From a virus, in the IMG/VR virus record IMGVR_UViG_3300005713_000003, positions 1-23,258 of that record: a stretch of 23,258 nt of DNA; one strand, written 5' to 3'. Positions 922-23,258 of the stretch are shown in pieces. The notes below the pieces were generated by a model, which saw only the letters and a program-made list of their open reading frames with translations, was not told the origin of the DNA and did no database searches. The translations under genes and the position numbers were made by a program. Each line of letters opens with the position of its first letter. Within the stretch, counting starts at the first letter, position 1.

Positions 922-1263
922 ATGGCCGATCAGGTTTCGTCGATCAGCACCGCACGCCAGTCAATCGAGCGCCTTCGTTCCCGTCTCGCGACCATGCGCG
1001 ATGAAGCAAAGTTGGCGGCAAAGACAGGTACGACGGCAGTCATCACGATCGGTGGCGGCGTTGCCGCCGGCGCGATCGCCTCGAAGATGCCCTATCTGCC
1101 CGGAACGCAGGTGCCCACCGCTGGCGCGATCGGCGCGGCGCTGATCACCGCGGCCATGACGGGCATGCTGGACGAGCACGGCGAGCAAGTGAGCGCCTTC
1201 GGTGCGGGCATGCTCGCGGCCATCGCGGCGCGCGAGACGGAAAAGGTCCTCGCGGCGGCCTGA
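922..1263 (+). CDS. Small multi-pass membrane protein (113 aa), function unknown
   Basis: ATG ORF with a charged N-terminal helix followed by Gly/Ala-rich hydrophobic segments (TAVITIGGGVAAGAIA, AGAIGAALITAAMTG, FGAGMLAAIAA). Third-position GC is high. Confidence 0.7.
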   Translation: MADQVSSISTARQSIERLRSRLATMRDEAKLAAKTGTTAVITIGGGVAAGAIASKMPYLPGTQVPTAGAIGAALITAAMTGMLDEHGEQVSAFGAGMLAAIAARETEKVLAAA

Positions 1264-1439: not shown

Positions 1440-2090
1440 ATGGGTCTCTATTTTGGTGGTCCGGATGAAGCGGACTTCGGCAACGGCAGGCCTCCCGTGT
1501 GGGGTCAGCCTGGCTTGGCAGTCTATGCCCAGCCGCAATTCGGCAGCCCGGGGCCGGTAGTTTGGGGTCAGCCCAACGCCGGGTATCGCGGTGCGGCCTT
1601 CGGTGCGGATTACGAGATCATCGGCGCGTACGAGATTCTCGGTGACCCCACCTCGAGCCCTGCAAAGCAGGCGCTTGCACAGTCGATCATCGCGGCGAAG
1701 CAACTCGGTGGCAAGGCAGTGCTTCAGACGGCTCCTCGTCGGGAGTACTCCCAGGTTCTCCCGTGCACGTCGCTTGCCGTCACGACCGCTGACCCGGTGC
1801 GTGATATCGAGTTGAAGCCTCAGCGTCCGTTCCGCCCGGAGAAATTCCGCGCGAGCTCGACGCATACGGCGCCGTTTTTCGTGATCACCGCCTACTCGAT
1901 CGGTCAGGACAACCAGTTTGTCGGGCCCGGCTCGATCCCGGTGGACCTGTTCTCCGAGGTGGCTTTGTACTCTCAGATCGAGGCGTACACGGCCAACCTG
2001 GGTAACCTGATCACGATGACCGTCCAGAACATCGACGATGAAACGCGCGACTTCCGCGCGGCTTTCTTCGGCACGTCGCTGGGCAACTGA
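1440..2090 (+). CDS. Beta-rich structural protein candidate (216 aa); possible jelly-roll capsid or vertex protein
   Basis: A strong SD (AGGTG at 1431..1435) lies 4 nt before the ATG. The N-terminus is Gly/Pro-rich with a repeated VWGQP motif. The C-terminal ~120 aa alternates hydrophobic and polar residues as in beta sandwiches (FFVITAYSIGQDNQF...GNLITMTVQNIDD...AAFFGTSLGN). Confidence 0.75.
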   Translation: MGLYFGGPDEADFGNGRPPVWGQPGLAVYAQPQFGSPGPVVWGQPNAGYRGAAFGADYEIIGAYEILGDPTSSPAKQALAQSIIAAKQLGGKAVLQTAPRREYSQVLPCTSLAVTTADPVRDIELKPQRPFRPEKFRASSTHTAPFFVITAYSIGQDNQFVGPGSIPVDLFSEVALYSQIEAYTANLGNLITMTVQNIDDETRDFRAAFFGTSLGN

Positions 2091-2154
2091 TCGGCGGTTT
2101 GGGCAACGGCCGGGGGCGACTTCCAGCGCTCCCGGCCTTCACTCGAGAGAGTCT

Positions 2155-2589
2155 GTGCGTGCAATCGTTTCTTTGGTCGGTGTCGACGATGATGGTGTGC
2201 TGGCTGGCTTTGCTGAGCGCATTTTGGAGGTGGTGGTGGACAACAACCGCTATCTCATGCGGCGCAACCCCGGGAAGGTGCCACCCATCTATCAGAGCGG
2301 CGTTCGGTTTCGTCCCGAGCCGTGGGCGGGCCCAAACCCCGCTACTCCGCCGATCGAGCAATTCTGCCCGTACCCTGAGCTCATTGCTCGCGGTTGGGCT
2401 GACTGCGCGCAGCTATGCCCATGGGTGGTGGCTGAGGCCCGCGAGCACGGAGACCTGGGGGCTCGGCTTCGCTTCTACTGCCGCACGCAGGGTGACCCGC
2501 GCGATCCGGAGCGCCGGCGCTTCTATCACGTCGAGACGCGAGACGGTCGTGGTCGTATTTGGGACCCGTCGAGGCTTTTGGACTTTTGA
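2155..2589 (+). CDS. Transglutaminase/papain-fold cysteine peptidase-like protein (about 144 aa)
   Basis: The Cys-His-Asp arrangement is typical of transglutaminase-like cores: GWADCAQLCPWVVAEAREHG ... FYHVETRDGRGRIWDPS. The start is set to GTG 2155 because the upstream part of track ORF 2038.. overlaps the preceding gene. The exact start is uncertain. Confidence 0.6.
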   Translation: MRAIVSLVGVDDDGVLAGFAERILEVVVDNNRYLMRRNPGKVPPIYQSGVRFRPEPWAGPNPATPPIEQFCPYPELIARGWADCAQLCPWVVAEAREHGDLGARLRFYCRTQGDPRDPERRRFYHVETRDGRGRIWDPSRLLDF

Positions 2590-2677: not shown

Positions 2678-3040
2678 ATGGGAGCACTGTTCGGCTTGGG
2701 AGTGGCGGCGTTGGCGTGGTGGTGGCTCGGTCGCCACTACCCGGAAGGCGAAGGACCCTTCGATCATCTCCCCTCAGGGGTGACGAAAGGCACGCGGTCA
2801 GCGCCGTCGCGAGTTAAGGCCTCGAGCGGTCGTTCTTACGATACCTACACCTGGCCACCTGATTCGAGCGGACGTCAGTTTCATGTGGCGGAGCGCCCCG
2901 GCGCTGGTGCATGGATCTCGTATTGGGTCGATCGTGCCACGGGGGCTCGATCGCTTCACATGACGCGAACGCCGTTCGCGATGGGCTCCGCTTCAGACCT
3001 GTCTGAGGTGGCCGCACTCCGGAAGGACTTCGGAGCATGA
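2678..3040 (+). CDS. Small membrane protein (120 aa; alternative GTG start at 2549 would add a second TM helix)
   Basis: GAGGA lies just upstream of the ATG at 2678. There is an N-terminal TM segment (GALFGLGVAALAWWWLG). The stop overlaps the next start (ATGA at 3037..3040). The 5' part of track ORF 2099..3040 overlaps the previous gene and was discarded. Confidence 0.55.
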   Translation: MGALFGLGVAALAWWWLGRHYPEGEGPFDHLPSGVTKGTRSAPSRVKASSGRSYDTYTWPPDSSGRQFHVAERPGAGAWISYWVDRATGARSLHMTRTPFAMGSASDLSEVAALRKDFGA

Positions 3041-4542
3041 ATCCACTGGTTATCGGCGCTGGGGGCGCTGCGTTGTTGCTACTTCTCACGAGCAAGTCGA
3101 AGGCCTCGACGCCTTCGGCTCCCTCGACGCCTTCGGTTCCCGGTGCCCAGCCGCCCGGGAGCGTCGTCACGCCAACGGGGGCGGGCAGCGTCGCTGAGCG
3201 CGTTGCAAACGTGCTCGCCACTCAGGACCCGAACGCGATCCGCTTCGAGGCGGGTCGGCTCCGACAGGAAGGCTTCACCGCGCAAGCCGCTCAGCTCGAA
3301 GCCGTTGCGGCTCAGCTCGAGGCTCAGATCGCAGCGGGTCAGCGGCCACCCCCCGTGTACGTTCCACCGCCGGTGGTGACGGCGCCGCCGGTGACGACGC
3401 CGCCGATCGTCGTGCCAACGGCGCCCCCGATCGTGATCGTCTCGCCGGGCTTGCCGCCGGGCACCGTCACGTCCCCTGGGGTGCCTCAGCCGCCCGCCTC
3501 GACGATTCCCCAGCCGTTCCAGCCGTGGATCGACGGGGTGCCTCCCGAGCTCCAGAAGGTCGTCCTTCGGAAGGTGGCGGCGCCGGCGCCGTTCGATCCC
3601 AAGGTCCTGTTGTTGCAGGCCCGCTTGCTCGATCTGGGTTACAGCGTCGGCTCGAACGGCACGGACGGCAAGTTTGGAGCCGACACGGAGAAGGCGGTGA
3701 AGGCGTTCCAGAAGGCCAACAACCTGCCTCAGGACGGCATTGCCGGCGCCCTGACGATCGCTCGGATGGCTCAGCCCAGCGCGAAGCGCGGCCCGGGTGC
3801 GCCGCTGGTGACGGTTCCGACCGCGCCGCCACCTGCCTCGACGCTGCCCGCGCCGGGGCCATGGATCCAGGGGGTGCCCGCGGAGCTCCAGGGCGTGTTG
3901 CTGGTGAAGGTGTCACCGGCGCCGGTGGATCCGCGCGTCACCATTCTGCAGACCCGTCTCGCGGAGCTCGGGTACCTGAAGCCGGCCGACATTGATGGCA
4001 AGTTTGGGCCCACCACTGAGAAGGCGGTGAAGGCCTTCCAGACGAACGCGAAGCTGAAGCCGATCGATGGCAAGGTCGGGCCCGCCACGCTCGCGGCGCT
4101 CGCCGGCGCCGGCGCGGTGCGCATGCAGGGTGATGAAGCCTTCGGGTTCGACCCGGGTTTCGACCGGGCGCCACCGGAGCCCATCGCGGGCACCCCGCTC
4201 CCGGGGGTGATTCCGCCGATGGTTCCGAACAGCCCGGAGCCGCGCAAGGCGCTCGCGGCGCGCGTCGCGCTGATGCTGTTTGGCGCTCCGCCGGGGCAGG
4301 AAAACAAGACGCTGATCGCTGCCTTCCAGGCTCAGGAAGGACTCAAGGCGAGCGGCTTCTACGGGCCTGCAACGGCGGAGGCGCTCGCGGAAAACTACGG
4401 GATTATCCCGCCGAAGCCGCTCTATTGGAGCAAAAAGCACCAAACGAAGGCAAAGCAGGCCTACCGCGCGCGCTTGCTCGCCTTCGTGCCGGATGACCCC
4501 CAGCGCGCCGAAGAGTGGCAGCAGGCGGCGAAGGGCCTATGA
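3037..4542 (+). CDS. Membrane-anchored peptidoglycan-binding protein with two PG_binding_1 repeats and Pro-rich linkers (501 aa)
   Basis: There is an N-terminal hydrophobic anchor (VIGAGGAALLLLLT). Two clear PG_binding_1-type repeats are present (LLQARLLDLGYSVGSNGTDGKFGADTEKAVKAFQKANNLPQDGIAG and ILQTRLAELGYLKPADIDGKFGPTTEKAVKAFQTNAKLKPIDGKVG), plus a degenerate third (FQAQEGLKASGFYGPATAEAL). The internal ~100-aa tandem duplication is also visible at the nucleotide level. Confidence 0.85.
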   Translation: MNPLVIGAGGAALLLLLTSKSKASTPSAPSTPSVPGAQPPGSVVTPTGAGSVAERVANVLATQDPNAIRFEAGRLRQEGFTAQAAQLEAVAAQLEAQIAAGQRPPPVYVPPPVVTAPPVTTPPIVVPTAPPIVIVSPGLPPGTVTSPGVPQPPASTIPQPFQPWIDGVPPELQKVVLRKVAAPAPFDPKVLLLQARLLDLGYSVGSNGTDGKFGADTEKAVKAFQKANNLPQDGIAGALTIARMAQPSAKRGPGAPLVTVPTAPPPASTLPAPGPWIQGVPAELQGVLLVKVSPAPVDPRVTILQTRLAELGYLKPADIDGKFGPTTEKAVKAFQTNAKLKPIDGKVGPATLAALAGAGAVRMQGDEAFGFDPGFDRAPPEPIAGTPLPGVIPPMVPNSPEPRKALAARVALMLFGAPPGQENKTLIAAFQAQEGLKASGFYGPATAEALAENYGIIPPKPLYWSKKHQTKAKQAYRARLLAFVPDDPQRAEEWQQAAKGL

Positions 4543-4811
4543 CCTGGGGCTTTCCCGTCAACGCCGAGCTCGCGGCGGCCTGGCAACACACCTGGGAGCG
4601 AAAGTATCGCCCCCGGTGGGTGCAGGTCGGGAGCAAGTTCTATCCGCAAGGCGTGGCGCGAGCGTTGCCGCCTGCGCCCGACCCGCGCGCGCTCGAGCGG
4701 CTAGCGAAGGACGCGGATCGCACCGCGCGTAGGAACGCGCGCATCATGCGCCGGCGCGCAGCGGCGCGAGAGTGCATGCGACGGCTTCGAGCCGAAAGGG
4801 CTGGACAATGA
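4539..4811 (+). CDS. Hypothetical basic protein (90 aa)
   Basis: ATGA overlaps occur at both ends (4539..4542 and 4808..4811), indicating translational coupling with its neighbours. The C-terminus is Arg-rich and helical. Confidence 0.65.
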   Translation: MTWGFPVNAELAAAWQHTWERKYRPRWVQVGSKFYPQGVARALPPAPDPRALERLAKDADRTARRNARIMRRRAAARECMRRLRAERAGQ

Positions 4812-6205
4812 CGGCTCAGGACGATTTCGACACGGCAGCGGCGTTCGGTGACTCGGGCGAGATGGCCTCGATCTGGGGTGCGGCGAGCGTTGCTCAGACG
4901 GGCAACTTTCTCGAAGCGACGCGCGTTCCGCTCGCGGCTCCGAAGGCGCTGGCGCCGGTGAAGGCCGTTCAGATCAGCACGGCCGCGAAGCTTCCAACCG
5001 TCAACGTCTCCACCTCGAAGGGAGCAACGAAGGCGCCAGCGATCGCAGTGCCAACGAAGCCAGCCGCGGCGAAGGCGCCGGCGGCGCCGGCGAAGGCCGC
5101 GCCGGCGCCGGCCTCGACGAAACCAGCCATCACCGCCGGCGGTCTTCTGTCGGGTGTGCAGGCGGGCATTTCGAACGCCGTCACTACGGCATTGAATGCC
5201 GGAACGGGTGGCTTCGCTCCCAATACGATCCCGCCTGGGGTCAAGCTCGACGTGTTCTCGCTCAACCTGCTGAATACCGTTCCGGGTGCGCGGGTCGTGA
5301 TGTCGAAGGACGGGAAGTATTCGGTGGAGACCCCGAAGGCGGCGCCGGCGCCGGCCGGCACGAAGCCGACGCTGACCGATGCCGAGCGAGCCGCGAACGC
5401 TGAAGCGATCAGGCAAGCCGCGAACCGCACGGCCAACATCAACGCCGCGCCGGGTGGCTACAGCGATCAGCGCACGGATGCGCACGCGCGCGCGGTGGCG
5501 CTCAACAACCTGATCGCCGAAGGGCCAGCGGGCAAGGCGGGAACGGACCTGGATCAATTCATCATGGGAGGCAAGGTCCTGGCCGCCGGCGCTGCCATCA
5601 TCGCGTCGGGTGGAACGGCGGCAGGCGGGCTCGGACTCACGGCTGGCGCGGGCTCGCTCGCCGCGGCGGCCAGCGCCGATCGGTTGCTGAGCGCGATCGA
5701 GACGGGTGGTGCGATCGGCAAGCAAGCGACGGCCGTCCTGAACGAAGCGAAGGCAGCCGCGGCGAAGGGCGATGCGATCGCGAAGACGGCGCTCGACGTG
5801 GTGGCGGACGTGAGTGCCGACCGCATCGCGGCGAAGGTGCCCGCTGGTGTCAAGCAAGTCCTGAGCGTCAACGCGAAGGATGCGCTCGCGACCGTGGCGA
5901 GCATGCCGGCGGTGACGACCGCGCTGGCCGCGGCCAATGCTTCGAGCGGCGGCTACATGACGACGCCGCTCACCACGAAGCCCCATGCGACGGCTCCCGT
6001 CGTCAACCAAGCCACGAAGCAAATTCTTGCAACCGTCCAGGTGCCTCGCGCGCTTTGGCTGGTGTCGAACGCGGGAGGCATCACGAGCCTCACGCAGACC
6101 CCCAATGCGGCATGGTCGGGCGGCTTCGTGGTCTTCTCTTCGGGACTCGTGATGCGGCAGACAGCCGAAGCCGCGGCGCTCGCCGCAAAAGGCGTGGCAG
6201 CGTGA
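4808..6205 (+). CDS. Ala/Lys/Pro-rich low-complexity protein with a Gly/Ala-rich hydrophobic segment (465 aa); structural or DNA-delivery candidate
   Basis: The start is set to the ATG at 4808 (ATGA overlap). Repeats of KPAAAKAPAAPAKAAPAPASTKPA type occur near the N-terminus. A hydrophobic stretch (VLAAGAAIIASGGTAAGGLGLTAGAGSLAAAA) is present. Third-position GC is high. No catalytic motif was recognised. Confidence 0.75.
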   Translation: MTAQDDFDTAAAFGDSGEMASIWGAASVAQTGNFLEATRVPLAAPKALAPVKAVQISTAAKLPTVNVSTSKGATKAPAIAVPTKPAAAKAPAAPAKAAPAPASTKPAITAGGLLSGVQAGISNAVTTALNAGTGGFAPNTIPPGVKLDVFSLNLLNTVPGARVVMSKDGKYSVETPKAAPAPAGTKPTLTDAERAANAEAIRQAANRTANINAAPGGYSDQRTDAHARAVALNNLIAEGPAGKAGTDLDQFIMGGKVLAAGAAIIASGGTAAGGLGLTAGAGSLAAAASADRLLSAIETGGAIGKQATAVLNEAKAAAAKGDAIAKTALDVVADVSADRIAAKVPAGVKQVLSVNAKDALATVASMPAVTTALAAANASSGGYMTTPLTTKPHATAPVVNQATKQILATVQVPRALWLVSNAGGITSLTQTPNAAWSGGFVVFSSGLVMRQTAEAAALAAKGVAA

Positions 6206-6558
6206 TCTATCTCGCTGCGATTATGGCGGCGCTCGCCGGGTGGGCGCTCAAGGGGGTGTTGCCGAGTGACCCCAGCGCCGTCACGCGCGGCACGGCTACG
6301 CTGGTGCCCGGTGACACCTACCGGCTCACCTATCGCGGCGACTTCAATCTCGAAGCGAGCCCGTCGGCTCAGGCGGACGTGCGCTTCGAGCTGATCAGCC
6401 ATTCGGCTTTCGATATCGCCTTCGATGGATCGGACGTGAGCTTCACGATTCGCGCGCCTGAGCCGCGGTCGTTGCCGATCGGTAGCTCGCTCGAGGCCAC
6501 GGGGGCCATGACTAGTTTCGGAGCCAGTCTTCGGCTGGTGAAAGTGAAGGCGTTGTGA
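6202..6558 (+). CDS. Small protein with an N-terminal TM/signal segment and a beta-rich domain (118 aa)
   Basis: GTGA overlaps occur at both ends (6202..6205 and 6555..6558). The N-terminus is IYLAAIMAALAGWALKGV. The upstream part of track ORF 6055.. overlaps the previous gene. Confidence 0.65.
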   Translation: MIYLAAIMAALAGWALKGVLPSDPSAVTRGTATLVPGDTYRLTYRGDFNLEASPSAQADVRFELISHSAFDIAFDGSDVSFTIRAPEPRSLPIGSSLEATGAMTSFGASLRLVKVKAL

Positions 6559-7385
6559 ACGACTGGCGAAACCGACCGCGCGTCTTCGAGCTCAATGGTG
6601 GATACCAGCCGGACCCGGTACCGGCTGGCTATGTCGAACCTCCCCAGGGTCGGCATGTCGTCGAGACGATCGAGCCTTCGCGTGGGTGGTGGACTCAGGC
6701 GGGTAAGTTCGGCTTTCGTGCTCAGTTGCAGGTCGATCAGATCGTCGAGGGGCTTCAGATCCCGCTCTTCGAAAACCTGGCGTTGCCGGGGCCGCCGGCG
6801 CCGTGGTGGGTTCAGTTTTTCCGCTTCGATCGGGCGCTCGACACGGAAGAGTCGTCTTCGCTCTTCGAGCTTCGTGGGCGCGTGCTCTATGGCGTGGGTG
6901 GTATCACCAACGTGATCGAGTGCGATGTGATGCAAGGCATTCAGCTCCCGATCGTGTGCAACTCGATCAACGTGTCGCTGGTGCCATACAACCCGCGGCC
7001 CTTCGATGAATTTACTCCGGGCCCGGTGACGGTGGGTGCGGTGATCGGAAAGGGTGGTGGCGCTGGCGCGTTGCCTCCTACGTACACCACGCCCTTCGAA
7101 CAGCAGGTCGGTGCAACGCCGCTGGTGATGACCGTTCCGCTGCCGGACTTCGCTCGATCGATCTGCCTGCACACGACTGAGCCTGACGCCAGCGCGCTCG
7201 CTGGCGCGACGCTCGCGTTTCTGTCGAGTGCTGCGATGAAGGTGATCGACGTGGGCGCCTGCTATCAGCTCTTGACTCAGGAAAAGGGCATCGCGATCCC
7301 AGCTGGCACGAATCAGGTGGTGCTGACGACCGTTGCCGGCACGGCCGGCGAAGTCTTCGGGCTGCAATTTTTCCTCGCATTCTGA
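6555..7385 (+). CDS. Beta-rich structural protein (276 aa); best candidate for the major capsid protein (possible double jelly-roll)
   Basis: GTG start coupled to the previous gene. It has no TM segments and many short alternating beta-like segments, ending in FGLQFFLAF. Its size is close to the ~270-aa double jelly-roll capsid protein of corticovirus PM2. The fold assignment is inference only. Confidence 0.8.
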   Translation: MNDWRNRPRVFELNGGYQPDPVPAGYVEPPQGRHVVETIEPSRGWWTQAGKFGFRAQLQVDQIVEGLQIPLFENLALPGPPAPWWVQFFRFDRALDTEESSSLFELRGRVLYGVGGITNVIECDVMQGIQLPIVCNSINVSLVPYNPRPFDEFTPGPVTVGAVIGKGGGAGALPPTYTTPFEQQVGATPLVMTVPLPDFARSICLHTTEPDASALAGATLAFLSSAAMKVIDVGACYQLLTQEKGIAIPAGTNQVVLTTVAGTAGEVFGLQFFLAF

Positions 7386-7397
7386 CCCCCCCTCACT

Positions 7398-7790
7398 ATG
7401 GCAGCACCCCTCACGTTCAACCCGTTCCGCGCCGCCTTCGGTGTCGTGGAGGATCCACCGCGGCCCGCGCCGCCGGCGCGTCGTCGCGTTGGCCCGCGCT
7501 CACACGAGGGGAGCGGACGCCCTAGCATCGCCGCTACTCGTGTGGGCGCCGCACCTGATGCTACGGACGCTCGCCGCGGCCCGCGCCGCCCGCCACGCCC
7601 CGGCGAGCGCGCGGGAGCTGAGCCATGTGGTCGCCCGGGTTCCGAAGGCCCGCGCAGCGGGCTCCGTTCCGCGAGCCCCCTGGGGGGGGGCGGCGCGAAG
7701 CGCGCGGCAGGGGGGGCGGGAAGGACGCTGGTGGTTGCCGTGGTCTATCGACGGCCGTTTCGCACGCCGTCCGAGGAGCGCCCGCTGTGA
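7398..7790 (+). CDS. Arg/Pro/Gly-rich, probably disordered basic protein (130 aa); coding status and frame uncertain
   Basis: The ATG lies 12 nt after the previous stop, and its stop overlaps the holin-candidate start (GTGA at 7787..7790). However, all three + frames are open here, and frame 7333..7977 has equal or higher third-position GC. The ORF contains a C5-T-G9 tract. Confidence 0.4.
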   Translation: MAAPLTFNPFRAAFGVVEDPPRPAPPARRRVGPRSHEGSGRPSIAATRVGAAPDATDARRGPRRPPRPGERAGAEPCGRPGSEGPRSGLRSASPLGGGGAKRAAGGAGRTLVVAVVYRRPFRTPSEERPL

Positions 7791-8005
7791 GCGCCTTCGG
7801 TGGGATCGTGCTGAGCATCCTTCTGGCCATTTGGATGACCGGGTGCCTGCTGTGCATCGCGGTTCCGATCGTCGACCCGAAGGCCCGCGCGGGCATGTGG
7901 GGCTGGCCGTGGCTGGTGCCCGTGTGGCCGTTGCCGGTGCTTTGGGACACGGTGGTGATGCTGCGTCGTCGCGCTGAAGCGAAGCGGGGGCGTGCATGCG
8001 ACTGA
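7787..8005 (+). CDS. Holin candidate (72 aa, two TM helices, charged C-terminus)
   Basis: It reads VSAFGGIVLSILLAIWMTGCLLCIAV ... MWGWPWLVPVWPLPVLWDTVVML followed by RRRAEAKRGRACD. Third-position GC is very high. It overlaps the lysozyme start by 10 nt. It is a sub-ORF of track ORF 7625..8005. Confidence 0.65.
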   Translation: MSAFGGIVLSILLAIWMTGCLLCIAVPIVDPKARAGMWGWPWLVPVWPLPVLWDTVVMLRRRAEAKRGRACD

Positions 8006-8640
8006 GCCCGGCCGGCGTTCAATTCATCAAGGGCGAAGAAGGGCTCAGCCTCACCGCCTATCGCGACCCGCCGATCGCGGATCAGAACGCTCAGCTTTGG
8101 AGCGTCGGCTACGGGCATCAGCTCGGGAAAGGCCCCCAGTGGGAGGGGTACACGATCACTCGCGCCGAAGCCGATCGGCTCTTCGATGCTGATCGCGTCT
8201 CGCGCGAAGCGGCGGTGTCGTATCTGACCCCCGTCGCCAACCAGCAGCAATTCGATGCAATGGTGTCGCTGGCGTACAACATCGGGATCGGCGATCAGAC
8301 GCGCCAGAAGGACGGCGGCTTCGCCACCTCGACGGTGCAGCGCTTGCACAACCTCGGTGATTACCAGGGAGCGGCGGACGCCTTTCGTCTCTGGAAAAAT
8401 TCCGCCGGCGCCGTCAACCCGGTGTTGGTTGCGCGTCGCGAGCGTGAGCGCTCGCTCTATCTGAGCGGTCCGACCTACAGCCAGCCTGCCCAGTCGCCTG
8501 CGCCGGCGCCTTCGCCTGCCCCGGTGGCTTCGAGCACGCCGCGAAACGTTGCAGCCATCACCGCGGCTGGGCTGGTTTTTTTTTGCCCCTCGTGTGGAGC
8601 GCGCTCAGCCAGCGTAGGCATCGAGGTTGACGATGGGTGA
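7996..8640 (+). CDS. GH24 (T4/lambda-type) phage lysozyme / endolysin with a Pro/Ala-rich C-terminal extension
   Basis: The N-terminal signature FIKGEEGLSLTAYRDP...LWSVGYGH matches the catalytic Glu/Asp/Thr region of GH24 muramidases. The motif QQQFDAMVSLAYNIG is also typical. The C-terminal tail contains a hydrophobic patch (VAAITAAGLVFF). Confidence 0.9.
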   Translation: MRLSPAGVQFIKGEEGLSLTAYRDPPIADQNAQLWSVGYGHQLGKGPQWEGYTITRAEADRLFDADRVSREAAVSYLTPVANQQQFDAMVSLAYNIGIGDQTRQKDGGFATSTVQRLHNLGDYQGAADAFRLWKNSAGAVNPVLVARRERERSLYLSGPTYSQPAQSPAPAPSPAPVASSTPRNVAAITAAGLVFFCPSCGARSASVGIEVDDG

Positions 8641-9454
8641 GACCACGAATTTCCGAAAGGTCGTGCCCACCGAGCTCCCGCAACACATTGCGGCAACGGA
8701 GGACTGGAAGGCGTGGCCGCGCAAGCTCGAGGCGCACGTCCGCTGGGGCGTGCGCGAGCGGCAGGTCACCTCGTATTGCCGCACGGGGCGGCTGGTTGTG
8801 TGGCGTTGCCCGGACGAGTCGTTGCGCATTGACCCATCGCAAATGGAGGAACTCTTTGGCGTCGAGGGAGCGGTACAGGGGCGCGCGGCTCGCGACGTCC
8901 CGCCGGATGCCCCTGAACGAAAAGAGCCGGCTTCGAAGCGACCCGCGCGAGATGACTGGGATTACTCCGACCCGCTCCCCGCGGTCGTTAAGGAGCTCCG
9001 TGGGGTGATTGCTCAGCAGCAAACGGCGATCGCCGATCTGCTGAAAATGTCAACGGACCCGATCAAGTATGCGATGCAACTCGCGGAAAAGGTTACTGCG
9101 TCGGCCCTGAGCGAGCTCAGCGCGCTACGGGCGAAGGACCTGGAAAGTGCGGTCCTTCGCGAAGAGCTCCTGACCACGAAGCACATTCGGGACCTGGAGC
9201 TCGCGAAGCAACAGGCCGCCGATCGGCGGAAGGACGAGACGCTGGCCTTGCTCAAGGCGAAGGCGCCGGCGTTGTTGGATCGTTTCTTCGCGACGACCGA
9301 TTTGGCGTCGTTTGTCAAAACAATAGACCCGGCGCTCCTTTTGATGCTGCTCGAGTCAGGGACCCTGACCGAAGAGCAGGCAGCGACCTTGCGCCGGGTC
9401 TCTGGAATTGGGAAAACGCCGGTCAACGGCAAAGGTAGCGAGGTAGTGCAATGA
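8633..9454 (+). CDS. Protein with an N-terminal excisionase/MerR-like HTH and a long coiled-coil region (273 aa)
   Basis: GAGG lies 6 nt before the ATG at 8633. WGVRERQVTSYCRTGRLVVWRCPDESLRIDPSQMEELF resembles HTH_17/excisionase-type DNA-binding domains. The remainder is helical and charged. Confidence 0.7.
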   Translation: MGETTNFRKVVPTELPQHIAATEDWKAWPRKLEAHVRWGVRERQVTSYCRTGRLVVWRCPDESLRIDPSQMEELFGVEGAVQGRAARDVPPDAPERKEPASKRPARDDWDYSDPLPAVVKELRGVIAQQQTAIADLLKMSTDPIKYAMQLAEKVTASALSELSALRAKDLESAVLREELLTTKHIRDLELAKQQAADRRKDETLALLKAKAPALLDRFFATTDLASFVKTIDPALLLMLLESGTLTEEQAATLRRVSGIGKTPVNGKGSEVVQ

Positions 9455-10057: not shown

Positions 10058-10297
10058 ATGGCAGCGAAGAAAGCAGGCCCGAAGACGCGAAGCGAGGTTT
10101 TCGCGGGCCTCGAGCACAACCCGAAGTATCAAAACCTGCACAAGGCGAAAGACAAGCTCGAGGCAGCGTTGACGCTGGCGAAGGCTGCCCGCGATCCCGC
10201 GTCGGTGAAGGCGATGGGTCGTGCCTTCGATCGCGTCGTCGCTCAGATGATCAAGGTCGAAAACGCTGCGTTGAAGCGAGCGGGGTTCAAGGTCTGA
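10058..10297 (+). CDS. Small basic helical protein (79 aa)
   Basis: ATG at 10058, a sub-ORF of track ORF 9734..10297, with AAAGG upstream. The next gene starts immediately after its stop (TGAATG). Confidence 0.6.
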   Translation: MAAKKAGPKTRSEVFAGLEHNPKYQNLHKAKDKLEAALTLAKAARDPASVKAMGRAFDRVVAQMIKVENAALKRAGFKV

Positions 10298-10685: not shown

Positions 10686-10982
10686 ATGTCACAGGTAGTT
10701 CGAAACGGATCGAGCGGCGAGATCGTCGCCAACATCGGAGCCATCGCGGTTCCGCAAACCGCCGTTGCCGTCACGGCTTCGGCTTCGGCAACGGCGGCTT
10801 TCACTGGCGCTGAGGTGGGCGATATCGTGAAGGTCTCCCCGCTCGCGGCGTTGCAGGGTGGGATCGGGATCGCGTCGGCCTTCGTTGCGGTGACTGGCGT
10901 GATCACGCTTCAGCTGATCAACGTGGGTGCCAACGCGACGCTGAGCGCTCAGACCATGTGGGCGGAGTGCGTACACCACTGA
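10686..10982 (+). CDS. Small beta-rich, Ala/Val/Gly-rich protein (98 aa); minor structural candidate
   Basis: A strong SD (GAGGAG at 10674..10679) precedes it. There is no TM segment. The composition suggests a small beta sandwich. Confidence 0.7.
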   Translation: MSQVVRNGSSGEIVANIGAIAVPQTAVAVTASASATAAFTGAEVGDIVKVSPLAALQGGIGIASAFVAVTGVITLQLINVGANATLSAQTMWAECVHH

Positions 10983-12145: not shown

Positions 12146-12577
12146 CCATTGTCAATCGGAATCGGCGATCAGGTAGAGCTAGTTCGAAGACGGCAAAGTG
12201 CAGCGAAGAGCAACGACTCAGATCAGAAAAACGACACAGTTAACCGAAGCTAACGGGGCAATTTCTCACACCAGAAACGCGACTAACTCGTGAATCCAAC
12301 CACCGAAATACAGCGAAGTCAAGCGGCGCGAGCGTGCGGCATAACACCCCGTACGACCCGGGCGGCCACTGGTGACAGTGACCGCGCGCTCCCGCCGCTC
12401 GGCTTAGCGCTGGGGAGCGAGGTTTTGTCTCAGCAAACCGGGGCGATAGCTTGCGCATTTTGTCACGCAATCGCGTCCGCTTGCCGGAAACGCGGCGGTG
12501 GTTGTTGCGCTCGCTGCAAATGTGTGCCGACCGCGGTTGAGCGCGTTTCAGGCCCGGCGCCGTTCGTCAACCTCGGA

Positions 12578-12781
12578 ATGGGGGGCGAGCCCATTCACCC
12601 CCGCAAGTGCGGCGCGGGTTGCCGGCATTGCAGCGCGATCGGTCTGTACCGCGGCGCGTCGGAATCGAACCGCCGGAGCGCGATCCTCACCAGCGGGGAG
12701 GGGCACGACGTCGAGCCCAACTTTTCGACGAACGCGCCAAAGTTGGGAACACCGCCCGATCCATCGGAGCCGAAGCCGTGA
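12578..12781 (+). CDS. Possible small Cys-containing protein (67 aa; alternative GTG start at 12524)
   Basis: Third-position GC is about 80% over roughly 80 codons. The stop overlaps the next start (GTGA at 12778..12781). There is no good SD and the sequence looks disordered. This call conflicts with the tRNA-like reading of the same DNA. Confidence 0.3.
   Translation: MGGEPIHPRKCGAGCRHCSAIGLYRGASESNRRSAILTSGEGHDVEPNFSTNAPKLGTPPDPSEPKP
12650..12695 (-). other. tRNA 3'-half-like sequence (anticodon-arm-like, T-arm and 3' acceptor strand); not a complete canonical tRNA
   Basis: The minus strand reads ...CGCTG-GTGAGGA-TCGCG-CTCC-GGCGG-TTCGATT-CCGAC-GCGCCGC-G. It contains the canonical T-loop 11-mer GGTTCGATTCC (+ strand 12661..12671). 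I could not fold the 5' half into a cloverleaf. Confidence 0.3.
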
Positions 12782-13348: not shown

Positions 13349-13840
13349 CTACTCTCGGTGCCCAGCCGGCGCGTCCAGCGGCGCCGCCGGCGCGTCTGGA
13401 CGGCGCTCGCCTTCGCCCTGAGCCTCGCTCTTTGGTGGCTCGTCTACAGGGCCACCAGGGCCACGGGAGCACTCGGCTTCGATTTCGACTTCGAGGCCAC
13501 GCATGCGGTGGCCGCCGTACGGAATGCCCACCGGGTCGATCACCGCGTAAGTCGCTACGCGCTTCAGCAACTCGAAGCGCCGTTTCGCATCTTGCTCGCT
13601 GCCCCTGAGGCGCTCGACTTCCGCGATCAGGATGCGAATGCAGCGGGCGAAGGCCGACACGCCACCGCCCGCCGTTGCGAGCTTCCAGCGGGCAAGGTCA
13701 GCGTCTGTTGGCCGGGGCAACGGGGCTTTGCTCAGGAGCTCTTCGATTTGGGCGAGCAATCGCCTTTCGCCACCGGGGCAACTGACCGCGCATTCAATGC
13801 CGGCTTCAGCGTTGCATTCGGGGCAACGACACCAGGTCAT
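13349..13840 (-). CDS. Cys-rich coiled-coil protein, paralog of the upstream gene (163 aa)
   Basis: The start follows the upstream stop directly (TAAATG). It has an N-terminal Cys cluster (WCRCPECNAEAGIECAVSCPG). It shares the module PLPRPTDADLARW...IRILIAEVERL with the gene at 13841..14437. Third-position GC is high on this strand. The overlapping + ORF 13208..14566 looks like a shadow ORF. Confidence 0.7.
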   Translation of the reverse strand: MTWCRCPECNAEAGIECAVSCPGGERRLLAQIEELLSKAPLPRPTDADLARWKLATAGGGVSAFARCIRILIAEVERLRGSEQDAKRRFELLKRVATYAVIDPVGIPYGGHRMRGLEVEIEAECSRGPGGPVDEPPKSEAQGEGERRPDAPAAPLDAPAGHRE

Positions 13841-14437
13841 TTACCCGTTCCCTTCGCGGTGATCGCGCAGCGCCCCGTTCAGGCGGTCGACTTCGGCAAT
13901 CAGGATCCGGATGACCCGGAAGAGCGGCTCGAGCAGTCCACTGGGGCTGTGTCGGGCCGAAAGGGCCGCCTGCCGTCGCCAGCGCTCCAGGTCGGCCGCG
14001 GTCGGCCTGGGAAGGGGCTGATCGTCGAAGGCGTCGAAGGACTCCGGAATGCCGTGAGACTGGCGATTCGCCAGCGGCGCGAGCCGTCCGCTGGTTCCGT
14101 ACTGACACCAGCCGGCGCCGTGGTAGGGCCGCTGGTTGTCGCCGCATGGGCAAGGCTCGGGAGTGCAGGCGAGCTCTTCCAGCCTCAGGACGCGCCGGAA
14201 CAACCCTTCGAATTTGGCGGCGAGTCGACTGGTTGCGGGGTTGCCGCTGGTTTCGAGCTCGATCACGCGCCGCTCGATACGAGCGAAGCATTCCAGCGTC
14301 ATTCGATTCATATTGCTTTGGAAAGTGGCGTCCGGTGCATCCGCTTGCGGTTCGCCGCGGGCACCAGCAGCACAAGCGTCGCAACGCAAGTGGAAACCGA
14401 CTCCGTGTTGGCAGGTGGTGATTTTGCCGTCTGTCAT
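13841..14437 (-). CDS. Cys-rich coiled-coil protein (198 aa), divergent from rep
   Basis: It has two Cys clusters (TTCQHGVGFHLRCDAC and CTPEPCPCGDNQRPYHGAGWC) and the module PLPRPTAADLERW...IRILIAEVDRL. Third-position GC is high. Confidence 0.7.
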   Translation of the reverse strand: MTDGKITTCQHGVGFHLRCDACAAGARGEPQADAPDATFQSNMNRMTLECFARIERRVIELETSGNPATSRLAAKFEGLFRRVLRLEELACTPEPCPCGDNQRPYHGAGWCQYGTSGRLAPLANRQSHGIPESFDAFDDQPLPRPTAADLERWRRQAALSARHSPSGLLEPLFRVIRILIAEVDRLNGALRDHREGNG

Positions 14438-14685
14438 TGCGCCACGGTAGCGCGTCCAACGGCAGCCAGCCCAGCTGAGCGGGCGATCCCCTTGACGGCG
14501 AGCGAGCCCCCGGGCGGGGCGACGGGCGCTCAGTGGAAAAGCTCGGCCCGGGGGTCGCAGTGGTGAACGCCTCGGCAGATGGGAGGGAGTCCGTCCGCGG
14601 ACTCGAGGGTCAGCGAGCGCGAAGCGATCGCCCCACCCCTGACGGAACCGCCGTTGCCCACCTGGCCAATGGGCTGAGAGGGTTG

Positions 14686-16167
14686 ATGGGTCGGAATCAG
14701 GACACCTGTCGGCTCCGGCGCGTCACTCCCACGGTGCAGCTGGTGGAGTACGCGGGCAAAGATGGCTCGCGCCTCAGCGTTCAGGGGGTGCACACGTGCA
14801 AGTCTCCACTTTGCCCGTTTTGCACGCGTAAGTGGCAGCGGGAGCGCTCAGGCGAGATCAAGCAAGCGATCGACAACTGGGAGGCGAAGGATCGGAAAGT
14901 GCTCTTCGGAACCTTCACGTTCCGCCACCACCACGGCATGAAGCTGGCGCTCATGCATCGCTTGGGGCGCGATGCCTTCGGGCACCTGTTCAGCGGGCGA
15001 GACGGTCAGGACTTCGCCGCGATGCTGGGGGGCAAGCCTGAGACGGTGCGCGCGCACGATCGCACGTGGAGTCTGGAGCATGGCTGGCACCCGCACATTC
15101 ACGCGCTGATTTTTCTTCGGCAGGTGAGTTACACCGAAGCCGAGCTCGAACAGTTTTTCTATGATCGCTGGTGCGCATCGCTCGAAACGTCGCTGATGCG
15201 TTTCAAGCGCTTCGCCGATCGTGTGCTCGCCGGCGAGCCGTGCAAGCATCCGAGCGAGTGCCCCTGTTGCTTCTATGGGCCGTTGCCGCTGAGTGTGCCG
15301 CGGGAGCGGGATTGTCCGTCTTTGGTGGAGCGTGCGCGTCGCGTCTTCGGTGCCAAGTTGTTGCCGCGCCGCGAGCCGTTGCGCGATTCGATGCAACGTA
15401 TCTCAGGGTTGCTCGATGCCTTCACGGTGGCGGGCATCATGCCGGAGCGCTGGAAGGTCAACTCGGAAGGCGAGCGCGTCGGGCTCGGTGTGCAAGTCGA
15501 ATGGGCGCGCAGCGCTGACCGGGCCTCGACGTATCTCTCGAAGCTGGGGCTCGAGCTGACGAACAACGATAAGCTCGGTCGCGTTGGGAGCGATGGCATC
15601 GCGCGCTATGGTTTGTGGGAAGTGGCGCGGCTCGCGACGCGCCACCACCACCCGCTTCGAACGCCGGCGCGTCGTGCATGGTCTGAGCTTTTCCGGGCGA
15701 GCTTCGGGACTCAGACGATCACGTTTTCATCGCGCGAAGAATTGGGGCTCGATCCCGATCGCTACGCGGAAGGCGAAGAGCCTGAAGAGCAGGATCCGAG
15801 CGAGACTTCGAGGTTGCTCGGGTCGATTATCGATCGCGACTGGGATACGTTGGTGAAGGTGCAGCGGCAGGGATTGCACGTGACGCTCGAAGCCGCGTGG
15901 AGCGCTGGGGTGTTGGGCGAGCTTCCCTATGTGGTGGCGCCCACCTGGTTTCAAGGGCTCCCCTCGACACATGATCCGCCGGCGCGAGCTCAGCCACCAC
16001 CGGAATGGTGGGAGCGCAACCGGGCAGAATTGGCAGCCGAGCAACGCGGAAAGGACTTGGCCGCTAGAGTTGCGCGCGCGGTGCACGCTCGGGACGAGGA
16101 TCGGAGCCTGTTCGTCGAGGAGTTGCGGTACAGGCTCGCGGTGGAATTGGGTGAGATCAAGCAATGA
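14686..16167 (+). CDS. rep: Rolling-circle replication initiator, Rep_1 (pC194/pUB110) HUH superfamily (493 aa from ATG 14686; ORF open from GTG 14533)
   Basis: CKSPLCPFCTRKW matches the conserved CKSRLCPMCNWRR-type N-terminal motif. FGTFTFRH corresponds to motif 1 (FLTLT-like). HPHIHALIF is the HUH motif. STYLSKLGLE is a Y-x2-K catalytic-Tyr motif candidate. The ATG at 14686 has the SD GAGAGGG. The C-terminal ~200 aa are unassigned. Confidence 0.9.
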   Translation: MGRNQDTCRLRRVTPTVQLVEYAGKDGSRLSVQGVHTCKSPLCPFCTRKWQRERSGEIKQAIDNWEAKDRKVLFGTFTFRHHHGMKLALMHRLGRDAFGHLFSGRDGQDFAAMLGGKPETVRAHDRTWSLEHGWHPHIHALIFLRQVSYTEAELEQFFYDRWCASLETSLMRFKRFADRVLAGEPCKHPSECPCCFYGPLPLSVPRERDCPSLVERARRVFGAKLLPRREPLRDSMQRISGLLDAFTVAGIMPERWKVNSEGERVGLGVQVEWARSADRASTYLSKLGLELTNNDKLGRVGSDGIARYGLWEVARLATRHHHPLRTPARRAWSELFRASFGTQTITFSSREELGLDPDRYAEGEEPEEQDPSETSRLLGSIIDRDWDTLVKVQRQGLHVTLEAAWSAGVLGELPYVVAPTWFQGLPSTHDPPARAQPPPEWWERNRAELAAEQRGKDLAARVARAVHARDEDRSLFVEELRYRLAVELGEIKQ

Positions 16168-17719: not shown

Positions 17720-17864
17720 CTTGCGCGAGTCGTTGCGCTCGCTGGACGCGACGCGGGCCCGATTGTTTCCGGTGGCGGCGCTGCAACAGTGGCGCGTGGA
17801 TAACGCTCGCCTGTATGTGCGCGGTGCAGCGCCGCCGGCGGCGCGTAGCGCTGGACGTCGCTGA
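17679..17864 (+). CDS. Possible small basic protein (61 aa)
   Basis: A good SD (GGTGGAG) lies 3-4 nt before the ATG at 17679. Third-position GC is about 74%. It overlaps the 3' end of the previous gene by 41 nt. Confidence 0.35.
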   Translation: MGQPKRSNQPKTGSLRESLRSLDATRARLFPVAALQQWRVDNARLYVRGAAPPAARSAGRR

Positions 17865-17876
17865 CCCTGGAGTGGC

Positions 17877-18440
17877 ATGCTCCGCCCCGGCATGGGGCGA
17901 CGTTCTCATTTGCGGCTGGTGAGTGCTCCACCACGGCCGGCCACCGAAGCTGAGCTCGACGTCATTCGCAACGGGCCGCCGGCGGCGCTGCGCGTGAGTG
18001 CATGCGCTGGTGCGATCGAGCACTTGCAAGCGGAGTGGGATCAGCGAAAGCGCCCGGAAGACGAAAACTGGCGACTTCCCGAGCCTGAGCCTGAGAACCG
18101 CCTAGCGACGCGCGCAGCGGTGCGCGGCGCTTTGCTTTGGGGCATCAAACAGCATCGTCTGATGAACCATGGGACCGAGCGGCCTCAGCCGATCGACGAC
18201 TGGCGACGTCCAATGCCGCCCTGGGAGCGTGTGAATTTGTATGTGCTGGGGGCAACGTTTTGGACTGAAAGCCTCGATGCGTTGGTGCGTGGTCAGGCGG
18301 ACCGGGCAACGAAAGGCATTCTGATTGCAGTGGCGGCAGGGACTCTATCGCTGAACGAAGCGCTGAGTCAGTTGCGCGACGTGCGGGGGTGGTTAGAAAA
18401 GCTGGGGCACCTTCGTGCCCTGAAAGGTGATCACGAGTGA
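17877..18440 (+). CDS. Hypothetical protein (187 aa)
   Basis: The ATG is preceded by GGAGTGG. The stop overlaps the next start (GTGA at 18437). No motif was recognised. Confidence 0.7.
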   Translation: MLRPGMGRRSHLRLVSAPPRPATEAELDVIRNGPPAALRVSACAGAIEHLQAEWDQRKRPEDENWRLPEPEPENRLATRAAVRGALLWGIKQHRLMNHGTERPQPIDDWRRPMPPWERVNLYVLGATFWTESLDALVRGQADRATKGILIAVAAGTLSLNEALSQLRDVRGWLEKLGHLRALKGDHE

Positions 18441-19972: not shown

Positions 19973-22174
19973 ATGGCTATTGATGTTCTGACTACGCGCC
20001 GCTCTCCCAGCGGCAAGATCGACCCGCTCGCGGACGTTGCGTGGCGTTCGCGCGGTGACGGCGCAACGGTTCGAAGCTTGTATACTCGCGATCAGGATCT
20101 GATCTGGGTGACGGACTTCATGTCGTTGGAAGAGCAGATCGATGCCTATGCGGGGAGTCTGCTGTATGACGCTTCGCCAGCGAATCAGAACGCGATCGAT
20201 TATGCCGTCTACAAAGACGAGCTCGCGGACTCGGGAGGTGGCCCGCGAGTGCGCATGCCCGGCGCGCTGATGCGCATCGATCGGACGATTCAGGTGGGCT
20301 ATGGGATCGACTTCCGAGCGGTCGTCTTCGAGGGCGAAGGGATGCGATCGGGCGGGACGAATCACAAGCAAGCGAGCGGGACGTGTCTCTTCCAGACGTT
20401 CAACGACGCGCCGGGCATCAACGTCCAGGGCGGTCGCAACGTGGTGGTGAGAGGCTTCAGCATGCTGGGGCCGAATGGGCTTTGGCTCTTCAACTTGATC
20501 CAGGGCGAGACGATGGGGGTTCTCAACGTTGCCAACTGGATCGATCCCGATTTCCCCGCGAGCGCTTCATCGCGCTACGCGCCGCTCGCTGGCATCGCGA
20601 TCGATGCGTACAGTGGGCCTCAGCCGGTGGTGCACTACCCTGACGTTGACTATCCTGCTTTCCTGGGGCCGGTGGCTCAGTACAACAAAGGGGCTTCGAG
20701 CAACACTCTTATCGAAGACGTGATGATCGACGGTTACTATGTTGCAATCGTGCAACAGCCGGGAGATTACGACGGCAACGGCGACTACACGCATATCAAC
20801 CGGGCGATCGTGCTTCGGTGCGCGTATGCGTTCAGCTGGGGCAACAGCCAGTCGCGCGTGCCGACCGTCGAGAACTGTGCTTTCGACTCGGTGCATACGA
20901 CGTTCTCCACAGCGACCTTCGGAAAGCAGATCGGGCAACCGGGCCTGGCTTGCTACTCGACGGCGTGGAGCCGGTGCGTTCAAATGTTCGACATTCGGAC
21001 GCTCAGCTACGGTCAAGGGCCGTCGTTCTACAATTGCTATGCCGAAGCGATCTATCGCATTGGCACGCTGGGCAATGCCGCTGAGACGGCGGGCTCCGTG
21101 CTCTTCTCCGGGTGCGATCTGGGCTTCAGTTGGTGGGAGACCTATGGCGTGCCTGTCTACATTCTTGACAACCGCTGCACCAGCGTCGTCACCTTTCAGA
21201 GTTGCTTCTTTGGAGGCTTCAGGAACGACACCTGGGGAGGCTTCGCTTTCTTTGGCACGGACGCTGGCGCCGATGGCGAGACGGCTCGCGGCTTCGCTTT
21301 CCGCGAGTGCACCATGTTCCACGTTGCCGGGCCGCCGTCGCAGCGCTGGGCTCAGTGCGCGTACAACGCCACTCAGGGCTTCAGCTTTAACAAGGCAGCG
21401 ACGACGCTGGAATACTACTCGTTTCGAGCGCCCAACGTCTTCAACCTCGACACGGGTGCAAACCTCAGCGTCTCTCTCTTCTCGCACGCCAACATCGCGC
21501 CGCGCAATCGGTGCATGCCATCCTACAGCGAGCGCGTGAAGTGCTCGATTCGTGGTGACGCTGGCTTTCCCGTGTCGTTGCCGGCGCGCTTCATCGAAGC
21601 GAACGGCGCCGGCGGGGTGATCACTCAGGTCGGGCGCAATATCACCTTCACGTTCTCTGGGGTGGATGCCGACTTCCTGAGCTATTCGGGTGGTGGCGTT
21701 GGCGACGTGATTCAGAGTCGAGCCACCGGGGCGACCTTCTGGGTGTACGCGCGCACGGGTGACGTGATCAGCGCTCAGGCTCAGACTGGCTTCGATAAGA
21801 ACGAAAACCTTCTGACCCCGCTGCCCAATGGCGATGTCTTCGATACCATCAATTGCCGGGTCTACTCCCCCAGCGCGAGTGCGGACGTGCTCTATGCCGA
21901 TATGGTGGCAGGCAGCCCAGTGCTGCTGAATGTCGTCAACGGGGAGGGTTTGGCGCCTACCACGATCGGTTCCTACGTGTCGGTGGGAGACTGGTTTTTC
22001 CCATCGTACTACGTGGATTCGATCGTCAACCCGTTCGGTGGCAACGGTAGGATCCAGTCGATCGACAACACCGCGAAGACGATAACGGTGGGCGGCAATT
22101 TCAAGCAAGACTTGCTGCATTGGCGAATGGGTCTGATGATTCGTCCCGAGATGGCAAACGGTACGCCTGCCTGA
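19973..22174 (+). CDS. Right-handed beta-helix (pectate-lyase-fold-like) spike / receptor-binding depolymerase candidate (733 aa)
   Basis: This is the largest ORF. The N-terminal region resembles the Pectate_lyase_3/tailspike start (VTDFMSLEEQIDAYAGSLLYDASPANQNAIDYAV...VRMPGALMRIDRTIQV). It is followed by many ~25-aa segments rich in N/G/S/C with aromatic caps, typical of parallel beta-helix coils. The C-terminal ~200 aa form a separate beta-rich domain. Confidence 0.75.
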   Translation: MAIDVLTTRRSPSGKIDPLADVAWRSRGDGATVRSLYTRDQDLIWVTDFMSLEEQIDAYAGSLLYDASPANQNAIDYAVYKDELADSGGGPRVRMPGALMRIDRTIQVGYGIDFRAVVFEGEGMRSGGTNHKQASGTCLFQTFNDAPGINVQGGRNVVVRGFSMLGPNGLWLFNLIQGETMGVLNVANWIDPDFPASASSRYAPLAGIAIDAYSGPQPVVHYPDVDYPAFLGPVAQYNKGASSNTLIEDVMIDGYYVAIVQQPGDYDGNGDYTHINRAIVLRCAYAFSWGNSQSRVPTVENCAFDSVHTTFSTATFGKQIGQPGLACYSTAWSRCVQMFDIRTLSYGQGPSFYNCYAEAIYRIGTLGNAAETAGSVLFSGCDLGFSWWETYGVPVYILDNRCTSVVTFQSCFFGGFRNDTWGGFAFFGTDAGADGETARGFAFRECTMFHVAGPPSQRWAQCAYNATQGFSFNKAATTLEYYSFRAPNVFNLDTGANLSVSLFSHANIAPRNRCMPSYSERVKCSIRGDAGFPVSLPARFIEANGAGGVITQVGRNITFTFSGVDADFLSYSGGGVGDVIQSRATGATFWVYARTGDVISAQAQTGFDKNENLLTPLPNGDVFDTINCRVYSPSASADVLYADMVAGSPVLLNVVNGEGLAPTTIGSYVSVGDWFFPSYYVDSIVNPFGGNGRIQSIDNTAKTITVGGNFKQDLLHWRMGLMIRPEMANGTPA

Positions 22175-23235: not shown

Positions 23236-23258
23236 GGTTTGCCGTCCTTTCGAGTGAA
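23229..23258. repeat. Terminal direct repeat, copy 2 (identical to 1..30)
   Basis: Exact 30/30 identity with the first 30 bases of the window. Confidence 0.95.

Follow-up and report, generated by a model that had tools for sequence, protein, structure and literature searches.

The DNA considered here is a stretch of 23,258 nucleotides (positions 1 to 23,258 of IMG/VR virus record IMGVR_UViG_3300005713_000003; 'the window' denotes this whole stretch at its full length), which carries a phage-like element with genes for two predicted jelly-roll proteins. Bases 1–30 of the window are copied exactly at 23229–23258, and we read this 30-bp terminal direct repeat as an assembly overlap, making the element a complete, closed circle of 23,228 bp. 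Its base composition is 65% GC, and plus-strand coding sequence covers ~76% of it. GC skew is positive around the entire circle with no sign change (+0.071 overall, +0.106 at third codon positions), which is consistent with unidirectional or rolling-circle replication, or with transcription of one strand. The two genes on which the interpretation turns are the following:

6555..7385, plus strand: the target gene, GTG start, encoding an acidic protein of 276 amino acids (aa) with no transmembrane segment and, in the structural model, two tandem jelly-roll-like beta-sandwiches
1440..2090, plus strand: the gene of A2, a 216-aa protein that also has a jelly roll and may be either a vertex (penton) protein or a rival major capsid protein (MCP)

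A preliminary description of the window had put forward the 276-aa protein as a minimal double jelly-roll (DJR) MCP, and what it said of the gene product itself holds well. The open reading frame (ORF) is real: it opens with GTG, its GC content by codon position (GC1 0.66, GC2 0.47, GC3 0.75) is what a genuine coding frame would show in sequence of 65% GC, and 44 homologues of 41–57% identity were found in a collection of 5.8 billion proteins, all of them unnamed or 'hypothetical' and located on metagenomic contigs of no more than 25 kb. When the family profile was searched against 1.84 billion cluster representatives (clusters at 50% identity), 341 clusters were matched at E ≤ 1e-3 and 138 at E ≤ 1e-10, the representatives being nearly all 240–320 aa long. 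Relatives in such numbers argue that this is not a chance ORF. The protein contains 16 K + R against 25 D + E residues, lacks a signal peptide and, as had been described, has no transmembrane-like segment (best 19-residue Kyte–Doolittle mean 1.48) and a length near that of the capsid protein of PM2 (P2, 269 aa).

Conservation within the family points to a structural protein rather than an enzyme. Over 101 diverse members D124 is the sole invariant residue, the other conserved positions being Gly/Pro, with near-invariant Gly, Pro, Ala and Leu, and no catalytic or metal-binding residue set is conserved among these members, His/Met copper ligands included. Scans of the protein and the 101 members against Pfam, PHROGs and NCBIfam gave no match, and PDB sequence and profile searches with the family profiles (A1 and A3 for the target family, A2 for that of 1440..2090) returned chance-level matches only.

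The AlphaFold2 model of the 276-aa protein, a confident one built on the 44-sequence alignment (mean predicted local distance difference test score, pLDDT, 85.9; predicted template modelling score, pTM, 0.77), bears out the beta-rich character noted earlier, with 17 strands and short helices only. After a low-confidence N-terminal arm come barrels at about residues 45–168 and 169–276, with eight strands between residues 53 and 165, seven to eight between 176 and 274, and a linker of ~8 residues. On this model we predict one chain with two consecutive eight-stranded jelly-roll barrels, and the short linker together with the pTM favours a compact side-by-side unit. Profile comparison of barrel 1 with barrel 2 gave no trace of internal duplication. 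Fold searches of the PDB with Foldseek returned weak matches, consistently to proteins with two tandem jelly-roll or beta-sandwich domains. The MCP of FLiP (5oac_A) ranked third (E 4.9e-4, probability 0.97) with the highest TM-score of all (0.29), while peptidylglycine alpha-hydroxylating monooxygenase (PHM) stood at ranks 2, 12, 16 and 21; the other matches included Neto2 CUB domains, SIDT ectodomains, birnavirus VP2, vicilins and a carmovirus coat protein. Matches in BFVD were equally weak, with several giant-virus proteins among them. The FLiP MCP, PHM and PNGase F share a double jelly-roll fold with the same relative orientation of the barrels (Krupovic et al., 2022; PMC8812541). The predicted fold is thus one of two jelly-roll-like barrels, and no match to a non-structural family was confident, so that neither of the outcomes named in the preliminary description as refuting its proposal was seen.

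Several observations weigh against the identification of this protein as an MCP. Every PDB match had a TM-score below 0.3, only four had E ≤ 1e-3, and the FLiP match is no better than those to the non-viral two-barrel proteins (Neto2 CUB, PHM, SIDT). PM2 P2, PRD1 P3 and the STIV MCP are absent from the top 50. As far as sequences can tell, the protein has no link to any MCP family: hhalign comparisons of profile A3 with the FLiP MCP, with a nine-member FLiP MCP alignment and with PM2 P2 were negative (probabilities <1%). DJR MCPs have alpha-helices after both strand F and strand F' (PMC8812541), and the model has one after F' (helix 237–240, F' at 227–232) and none after F (117–124). The protein is also among the least conserved core proteins of the element, as detailed below. 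What stands of the original proposal is therefore the predicted two-jelly-roll fold and the viral context; the MCP role and the analogy with PM2 are unproven, given TM-scores below 0.3, no MCP profile link, no ATPase and low conservation.

The near-equal ranking of PHM and the FLiP MCP bears on an alternative in which the protein would belong to no virion: with the element taken as a plasmid-like replicon, it would bind or act on carbohydrates (as a cellular double jelly-roll protein of PNGase F, PHM or DUF2961 type) or be located at the cell surface. Cellular double jelly-roll proteins do exist (PMC8812541). The residue pattern of the family, with D124 alone invariant, is however not of a catalytic type, and the protein has neither signal peptide nor transmembrane segment. 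The gene content of the element bears on the same question and is taken up below.

The preliminary description saw no further capsid-like ORF, and here the second jelly-roll protein proves it wrong: the product of 1440..2090 contains a jelly-roll domain, and no protein of the element is more conserved. It is laid out as a variable, indel-rich N-terminus rich in Gly, Pro and Trp, with VWGQP-type repeats (DNA repeat 1471–1510/1534–1573), then a conserved DYEI-GAYEI-G helix motif, then a C-terminal eight-stranded jelly roll of ~115 aa. Its AlphaFold2 model (pLDDT 63 overall, 70–85 in the barrel) correspondingly has a disordered N-terminus, two helices and an eight-stranded barrel. Foldseek matches are weak (best E 7.6e-3) and are all jelly rolls, led by pentameric nucleoplasmin cores and including bromovirus and luteovirus coat proteins and the single barrels of iridovirus and chlorovirus MCPs. 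The 66 homologues of A2 are 47–78% identical to it, and its C-terminal domain has a mean pairwise identity of 78%, against 56% and 45% for barrels 1 and 2 of the 276-aa protein. The two families show no similarity in profile–profile comparison, and the two proteins are found together in every locus that spans both positions. Two of the related loci (L003, 10563–11471; L004, 4950–5858) additionally encode a 302-aa A2 paralogue with an N-terminal DYEILGAFEIL motif, a barrel and a C-terminal coiled-coil extension, of which the window has no counterpart. A barrel and coiled-coil paralogue alongside A2 is reminiscent of the penton and spike pair P31/P5 of PRD1.

These differences in conservation are the chief reason for taking seriously a reading in which the roles are reversed, with A2 as the main shell protein (a single jelly-roll capsid of SPV1 type) and the 276-aa protein as a lower-copy vertex, turret or host-recognition protein, whose barrel 1 would be embedded in the shell and carry the more variable barrel 2, as in PM2 P1 or STIV A223. 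Between the window and L003 the 276-aa protein is 41% identical, compared with 77% for A2, 64% for the lysozyme and 52% for a 733-aa protein; low conservation of this kind, coupled with greater variability in barrel 2 than in barrel 1, is commoner in exposed or vertex proteins than in MCPs. In A2, as in many capsid proteins, a disordered N-terminal arm and a conserved helix motif precede the barrel, and its fold matches include the single jelly-roll coat proteins of bromoviruses and luteoviruses. SPV1 likewise lacks a packaging ATPase (PMC8812541). Yet the A2 fold matches are weak and headed by pentameric nucleoplasmin cores, which a penton would fit equally well, and the A2 model is only moderately confident. 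The ~8-residue linker and high pTM of the 276-aa protein point to barrels packed compactly side by side, not to a base from which a head projects, and the 733-aa protein is the more obvious candidate for host recognition. On the strength of the low TM-scores, the missing PM2, PRD1 and STIV matches, the missing helix after F and above all the conservation pattern, we retain reversed roles as an unlikely but substantial alternative.

Covariation was examined by mean-field direct coupling analysis (DCA) of 184 target-family sequences (Meff 180), which proved noisy and lends weak support only. The best blocks include pairs of jelly-roll type, namely D-I, C-H, E-H and E-F in barrel 1 and B'-I', C'-H', D'-I' and D'-G' in barrel 2. 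The sole clearly significant inter-domain pair, 92–198, adjoins the invariant PDFAR motif and runs between a 'top' loop in barrel 1 and a 'bottom' loop in barrel 2; its fit to side-by-side barrels is not obvious, a further point against a DJR-type MCP. The same pair would suit a capsid of the type found in the Helvetiavirae (P23-77 and SH1), in which A2 would be the small MCP and the 276-aa protein the large one, with barrel 2 stacked as a tower. Helvetiavirae are membrane-containing and tailless, and some have circular genomes of ~17–19 kb and high GC; P23-77 VP16/VP17 and SH1 VP7/VP4 combine a jelly-roll protein of ~170–200 aa with one of ~230–290 aa that has an extra beta domain. The sizes seen here fit VP16 and VP17 of P23-77 (~173 and ~291 aa), the two proteins always co-occur, and barrel 2 is the more variable barrel. 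The fold searches nevertheless speak against such a capsid: no P23-77, SH1, HCIV or other helvetiavirus capsid protein is in the top 50 PDB matches of either the 276-aa protein or A2. The two proteins also lack mutual profile similarity, their genes are not neighbours but lie 4.5 kb apart, the linker between the barrels appears too short for stacking, and the element lacks an FtsK-type ATPase gene, which stands ahead of the MCP genes in every helvetiavirus known to us. We consider a helvetiavirus-type capsid distinctly improbable.

The remaining genes relevant to the nature of the element are listed here in order along the window:

922..1263, plus strand: 113-aa hydrophobic protein, first gene of the conserved module, kept in the distant relatives L006 and L015
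2038..2589, plus strand: conserved protein of ~150–183 aa, adjoining A2 in all relatives, distant ones included
3037..4542, plus strand: 501-aa protein with an N-terminal transmembrane anchor and three PG_binding_1 domains
4772..6205, plus strand: Ala-rich protein of ~465–477 aa, no family match, weakly conserved, in the same position upstream of the target gene in relatives
6202..6558, plus strand: 118-aa protein with an N-terminal transmembrane helix and then a beta-rich domain; GTGA overlaps with the upstream stop and the target start
7787..8005, plus strand: 72-aa holin-like protein with two hydrophobic segments, overlapping the start of the lysozyme gene
7996..8640, plus strand: Phage_lysozyme (GH24-type) endolysin (Pfam E 4e-27; phrog_7 E 8.5e-47)
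14533..16167, plus strand: Rep_1 (PF01446) rolling-circle initiator with an HPHIH (HUH-type) motif at residues 186–190
19973..22174, plus strand: 733-aa protein, no family match, conserved in relatives

Related contigs have the same gene order as the window. The collinear module runs from a membrane protein through the single jelly-roll protein, a Cys/His/Asp protein, the peptidoglycan-binding protein and a large protein to the 276-aa protein, and it persists in elements just 25–38% identical and of different GC content (L006/L007 and L015). GTGA start/stop overlaps at 6202–6205 and at 6555–6558, the latter at the target start, make translational coupling plausible, as the preliminary description had it, but the target gene does not end the chain: the same-strand operon goes on 12 nt past it, with overlapping junctions at 7787–7790, 7996–8005, 8627–8640 and 9451–9454. 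The Cys/His/Asp protein (2038..2589) is named for the pattern GWADCAQL...FYHVE...WDPS, which reads GWGDCDDL...FHVVV...EDPS in the distant L015 homologue; no family match was found for it, and it may have a cysteine peptidase or transglutaminase-like fold. The product of 3037..4542 is a candidate cell-wall-penetration or virion membrane protein. The 733-aa protein may, by inference only, serve as a spike or in receptor binding; PDB searches with it and with a 363-aa protein returned nothing. Several further small transmembrane proteins are encoded in the element.

Among the credible ORFs of the window and of loci L001–L015, none encodes a Walker-A/P-loop ATPase, no packaging-type ATPase was found among those loci, and the Pfam and PHROGs scans gave no ATPase family match; the FtsK-HerA-type packaging ATPase usual in DJR viruses is thus missing, and the element appears to have no packaging motor. 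Among 20 ORFs scanned against the same two collections there was likewise no family match to an integrase, terminase, portal or HK97-type capsid protein, and no credible head or tail family match against PHROGs, the sole candidate being a weak phrog_584 match (E 0.01) in a 98-aa ORF. This ORF (10686–10982) encodes an Ala/Val/Gly-rich protein with two long hydrophobic stretches, is conserved in L001 and may specify a small virion membrane or minor structural protein, phrog_584 being annotated as 'major tail protein'. Rfam and tRNA scans of the window found nothing, and promoter and terminator sites were no more numerous than in shuffled sequence.

The family profiles of the 276-aa protein and A2 yielded no confirmed relative among GTDB species-representative genomes or in IMG/VR, and tblastn searches with both proteins and three distant members of the target family found no match in 50,697 phage records (INPHARED) or 72,556 plasmid records (PLSDB). 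A literature search turned up no description of the target family or of an element of this type. Three assignments were considered and rejected. Among the 50,697 phage records the Rep_1 protein has distant relatives in inovirus Reps only, but the element has no Zot-type ATPase and does have a lysis cassette, so it is not an inovirus. It has no ATPases, relaxase or coupling protein, as a conjugative plasmid would. Finally, the novel elements IME1 and Charybdis, described in two recent preprints, have different features.

These results also bear on the case for a plasmid-like replicon with a non-virion two-barrel protein. In its favour are the plasmid-type Rep_1 initiator and the extra genes of some relatives (single-stranded DNA-binding protein in L010–L012, a ParA-like protein in L013, ParB_N in L015), together with the lack of any relative in IMG/VR; that relatives have not been recognised as viral there also counts against a phage with a DJR capsid. 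Conversely, the element has no conjugation or mobilisation genes and no ATPase, nothing related was found among the 72,556 plasmids, and a holin-like gene with an endolysin, a second jelly-roll protein and a module collinear across divergent elements make up a typical virus morphogenesis block. We regard a non-virion role of the 276-aa protein as quite improbable. The window is most economically read as a phage-like element that is tailless and probably contains a membrane; that it is a plasmid and nothing more is less likely.

Other features of the window were noted in passing. Upstream of the Rep gene and divergent to it lie two adjacent paralogous Cys-rich (zinc-ribbon-like) ORFs on the minus strand (13349–13840 and 13841–14437), which share a C-terminal '...RWK/RR...IRILIAEV(E/D)RL' motif; both are also conserved in L002 and L003 and may be regulators. 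The start of ORF 17877..18440 lies within an inverted repeat (17826–17991; arms of 35 nt with 86% complementarity and a spacing of 96 nt), which could be an origin or a regulatory hairpin. A Cys-rich ORF at 12290–12781, in an otherwise intergenic-looking region, has a counterpart of 39% identity in L001 and may be a real gene. Two small, strongly basic proteins are encoded at 7398–7790 (130 aa, 24 K + R against 10 D + E) and 10058–10297 (79 aa, 17 K + R against 7 D + E); in an element without an ATPase they are candidates for DNA-condensing or DNA-binding proteins.

A DJR MCP and a single jelly-roll minor protein form a canonical structural pair (PMC5894146), and such viruses need not encode a packaging ATPase, which is absent from both FLiP (PMC8812541) and the Odin group (PMC5894146). 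On these grounds we favour, tentatively and at somewhat less than an even chance, the reading in which the 276-aa protein is a DJR-type MCP and the product of 1440..2090 the vertex protein of a new ATPase-less lineage of tailless phages. Such a phage would replicate by rolling circle through its Rep_1 protein. Its virion shell would be formed by the 276-aa protein, with the two jelly-roll barrels rigidly packed and pseudo-hexagonal trimers tiling the surface, and A2 would occupy the fivefold vertices. Entry and lysis would fall to the transmembrane-anchored peptidoglycan-binding protein, the lysozyme and the small membrane proteins. In line with proposals made for FLiP and the 'Odin' group, DNA would, without an ATPase, be enclosed during assembly, or its uptake would be tied to rolling-circle replication. 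We infer the capsid location, the formation of trimers, the hexon and penton roles, the internal membrane and the mode of packaging from the models and the gene content. A bolder version holds that these high-GC circles of 17–25 kb form a new lineage of icosahedral phages, widespread and membrane-containing, with a shell protein independent of the known DJR MCPs or branching deeply from them and with ATPase-less filling, possibly by a ~23-kb rolling-circle single-stranded DNA (ssDNA); this we offer as a long shot.

Should the 276-aa protein indeed be an MCP, a large capsid-protein family (341 clusters at 50% identity) would have been missed by current annotation, along with a group of tailless phages that escapes virus-detection pipelines and is absent from IMG/VR, INPHARED and PHROGs. 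Beside FLiP and the Odin group it would stand as a third lineage without an ATPase, its genome two to three times as large as theirs, and it would raise the question of how a 23-kb genome is enclosed without an ATPase. If packaged as ssDNA, the genome would be about 2.5 times the 9.2 kb of FLiP; we know of no ssDNA phage genome that one of ~23 kb would not exceed. The lineage would also bear on the origin of double jelly-roll capsids, since FLiP and the Odin group are central to the current scenario, according to which two-barrel proteins of cells were first recruited as such capsids and a packaging motor was gained only later (PMC8812541). Profiles A1/A3 and A2 could serve directly as markers for such elements in metagenomes.

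Among known systems, FLiP (Finnlakeviridae; PDB 5OAC) offers a close parallel in several respects: its MCP is the best viral full-length fold match of the 276-aa protein and of similar size (310–311 aa), and it shares with the element a circular genome, rolling-circle replication, a lytic enzyme, small structural proteins and the lack of a packaging ATPase. It differs in genome size and composition (9.2 kb and 34% GC, against 23.2 kb and 65% GC here), the TM-score is only 0.29, and its MCP has no sequence or profile similarity to the target family. With 23.2 kb, against circular ssDNA of ~9 kb in Finnlakeviridae, and no profile similarity to a FLiP-type MCP, the element falls outside that family. 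PM2 (Corticoviridae) resembles the element in the length of its capsid protein, its circular genome, its rolling-circle initiator and its many small membrane proteins, but P2 lies outside the top 50 fold matches, its hhalign comparison was negative, and PM2 encodes a packaging ATPase, P9, beside its MCP gene (for its role see PMC5894146), where the element has none. The Odin group (Yutin et al., 2018; PMC5894146), likewise metagenomic, combines a DJR MCP with a predicted single jelly-roll protein and no packaging ATPase; its genomes of 7–11 kb, its origin in marine sediments and its different replication genes set it apart, a distinction drawn from its description only. PHM, the rank 2 fold match, and PNGase F resemble the 276-aa protein in having two packed jelly rolls and differ in their catalytic or copper-ligand sets, and the 276-aa protein is encoded in a phage-like module rather than a cellular genome. 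Set beside these systems, elements of this type are best described as ATPase-less rolling-circle replicons of 17–25 kb that carry a jelly-roll capsid module.

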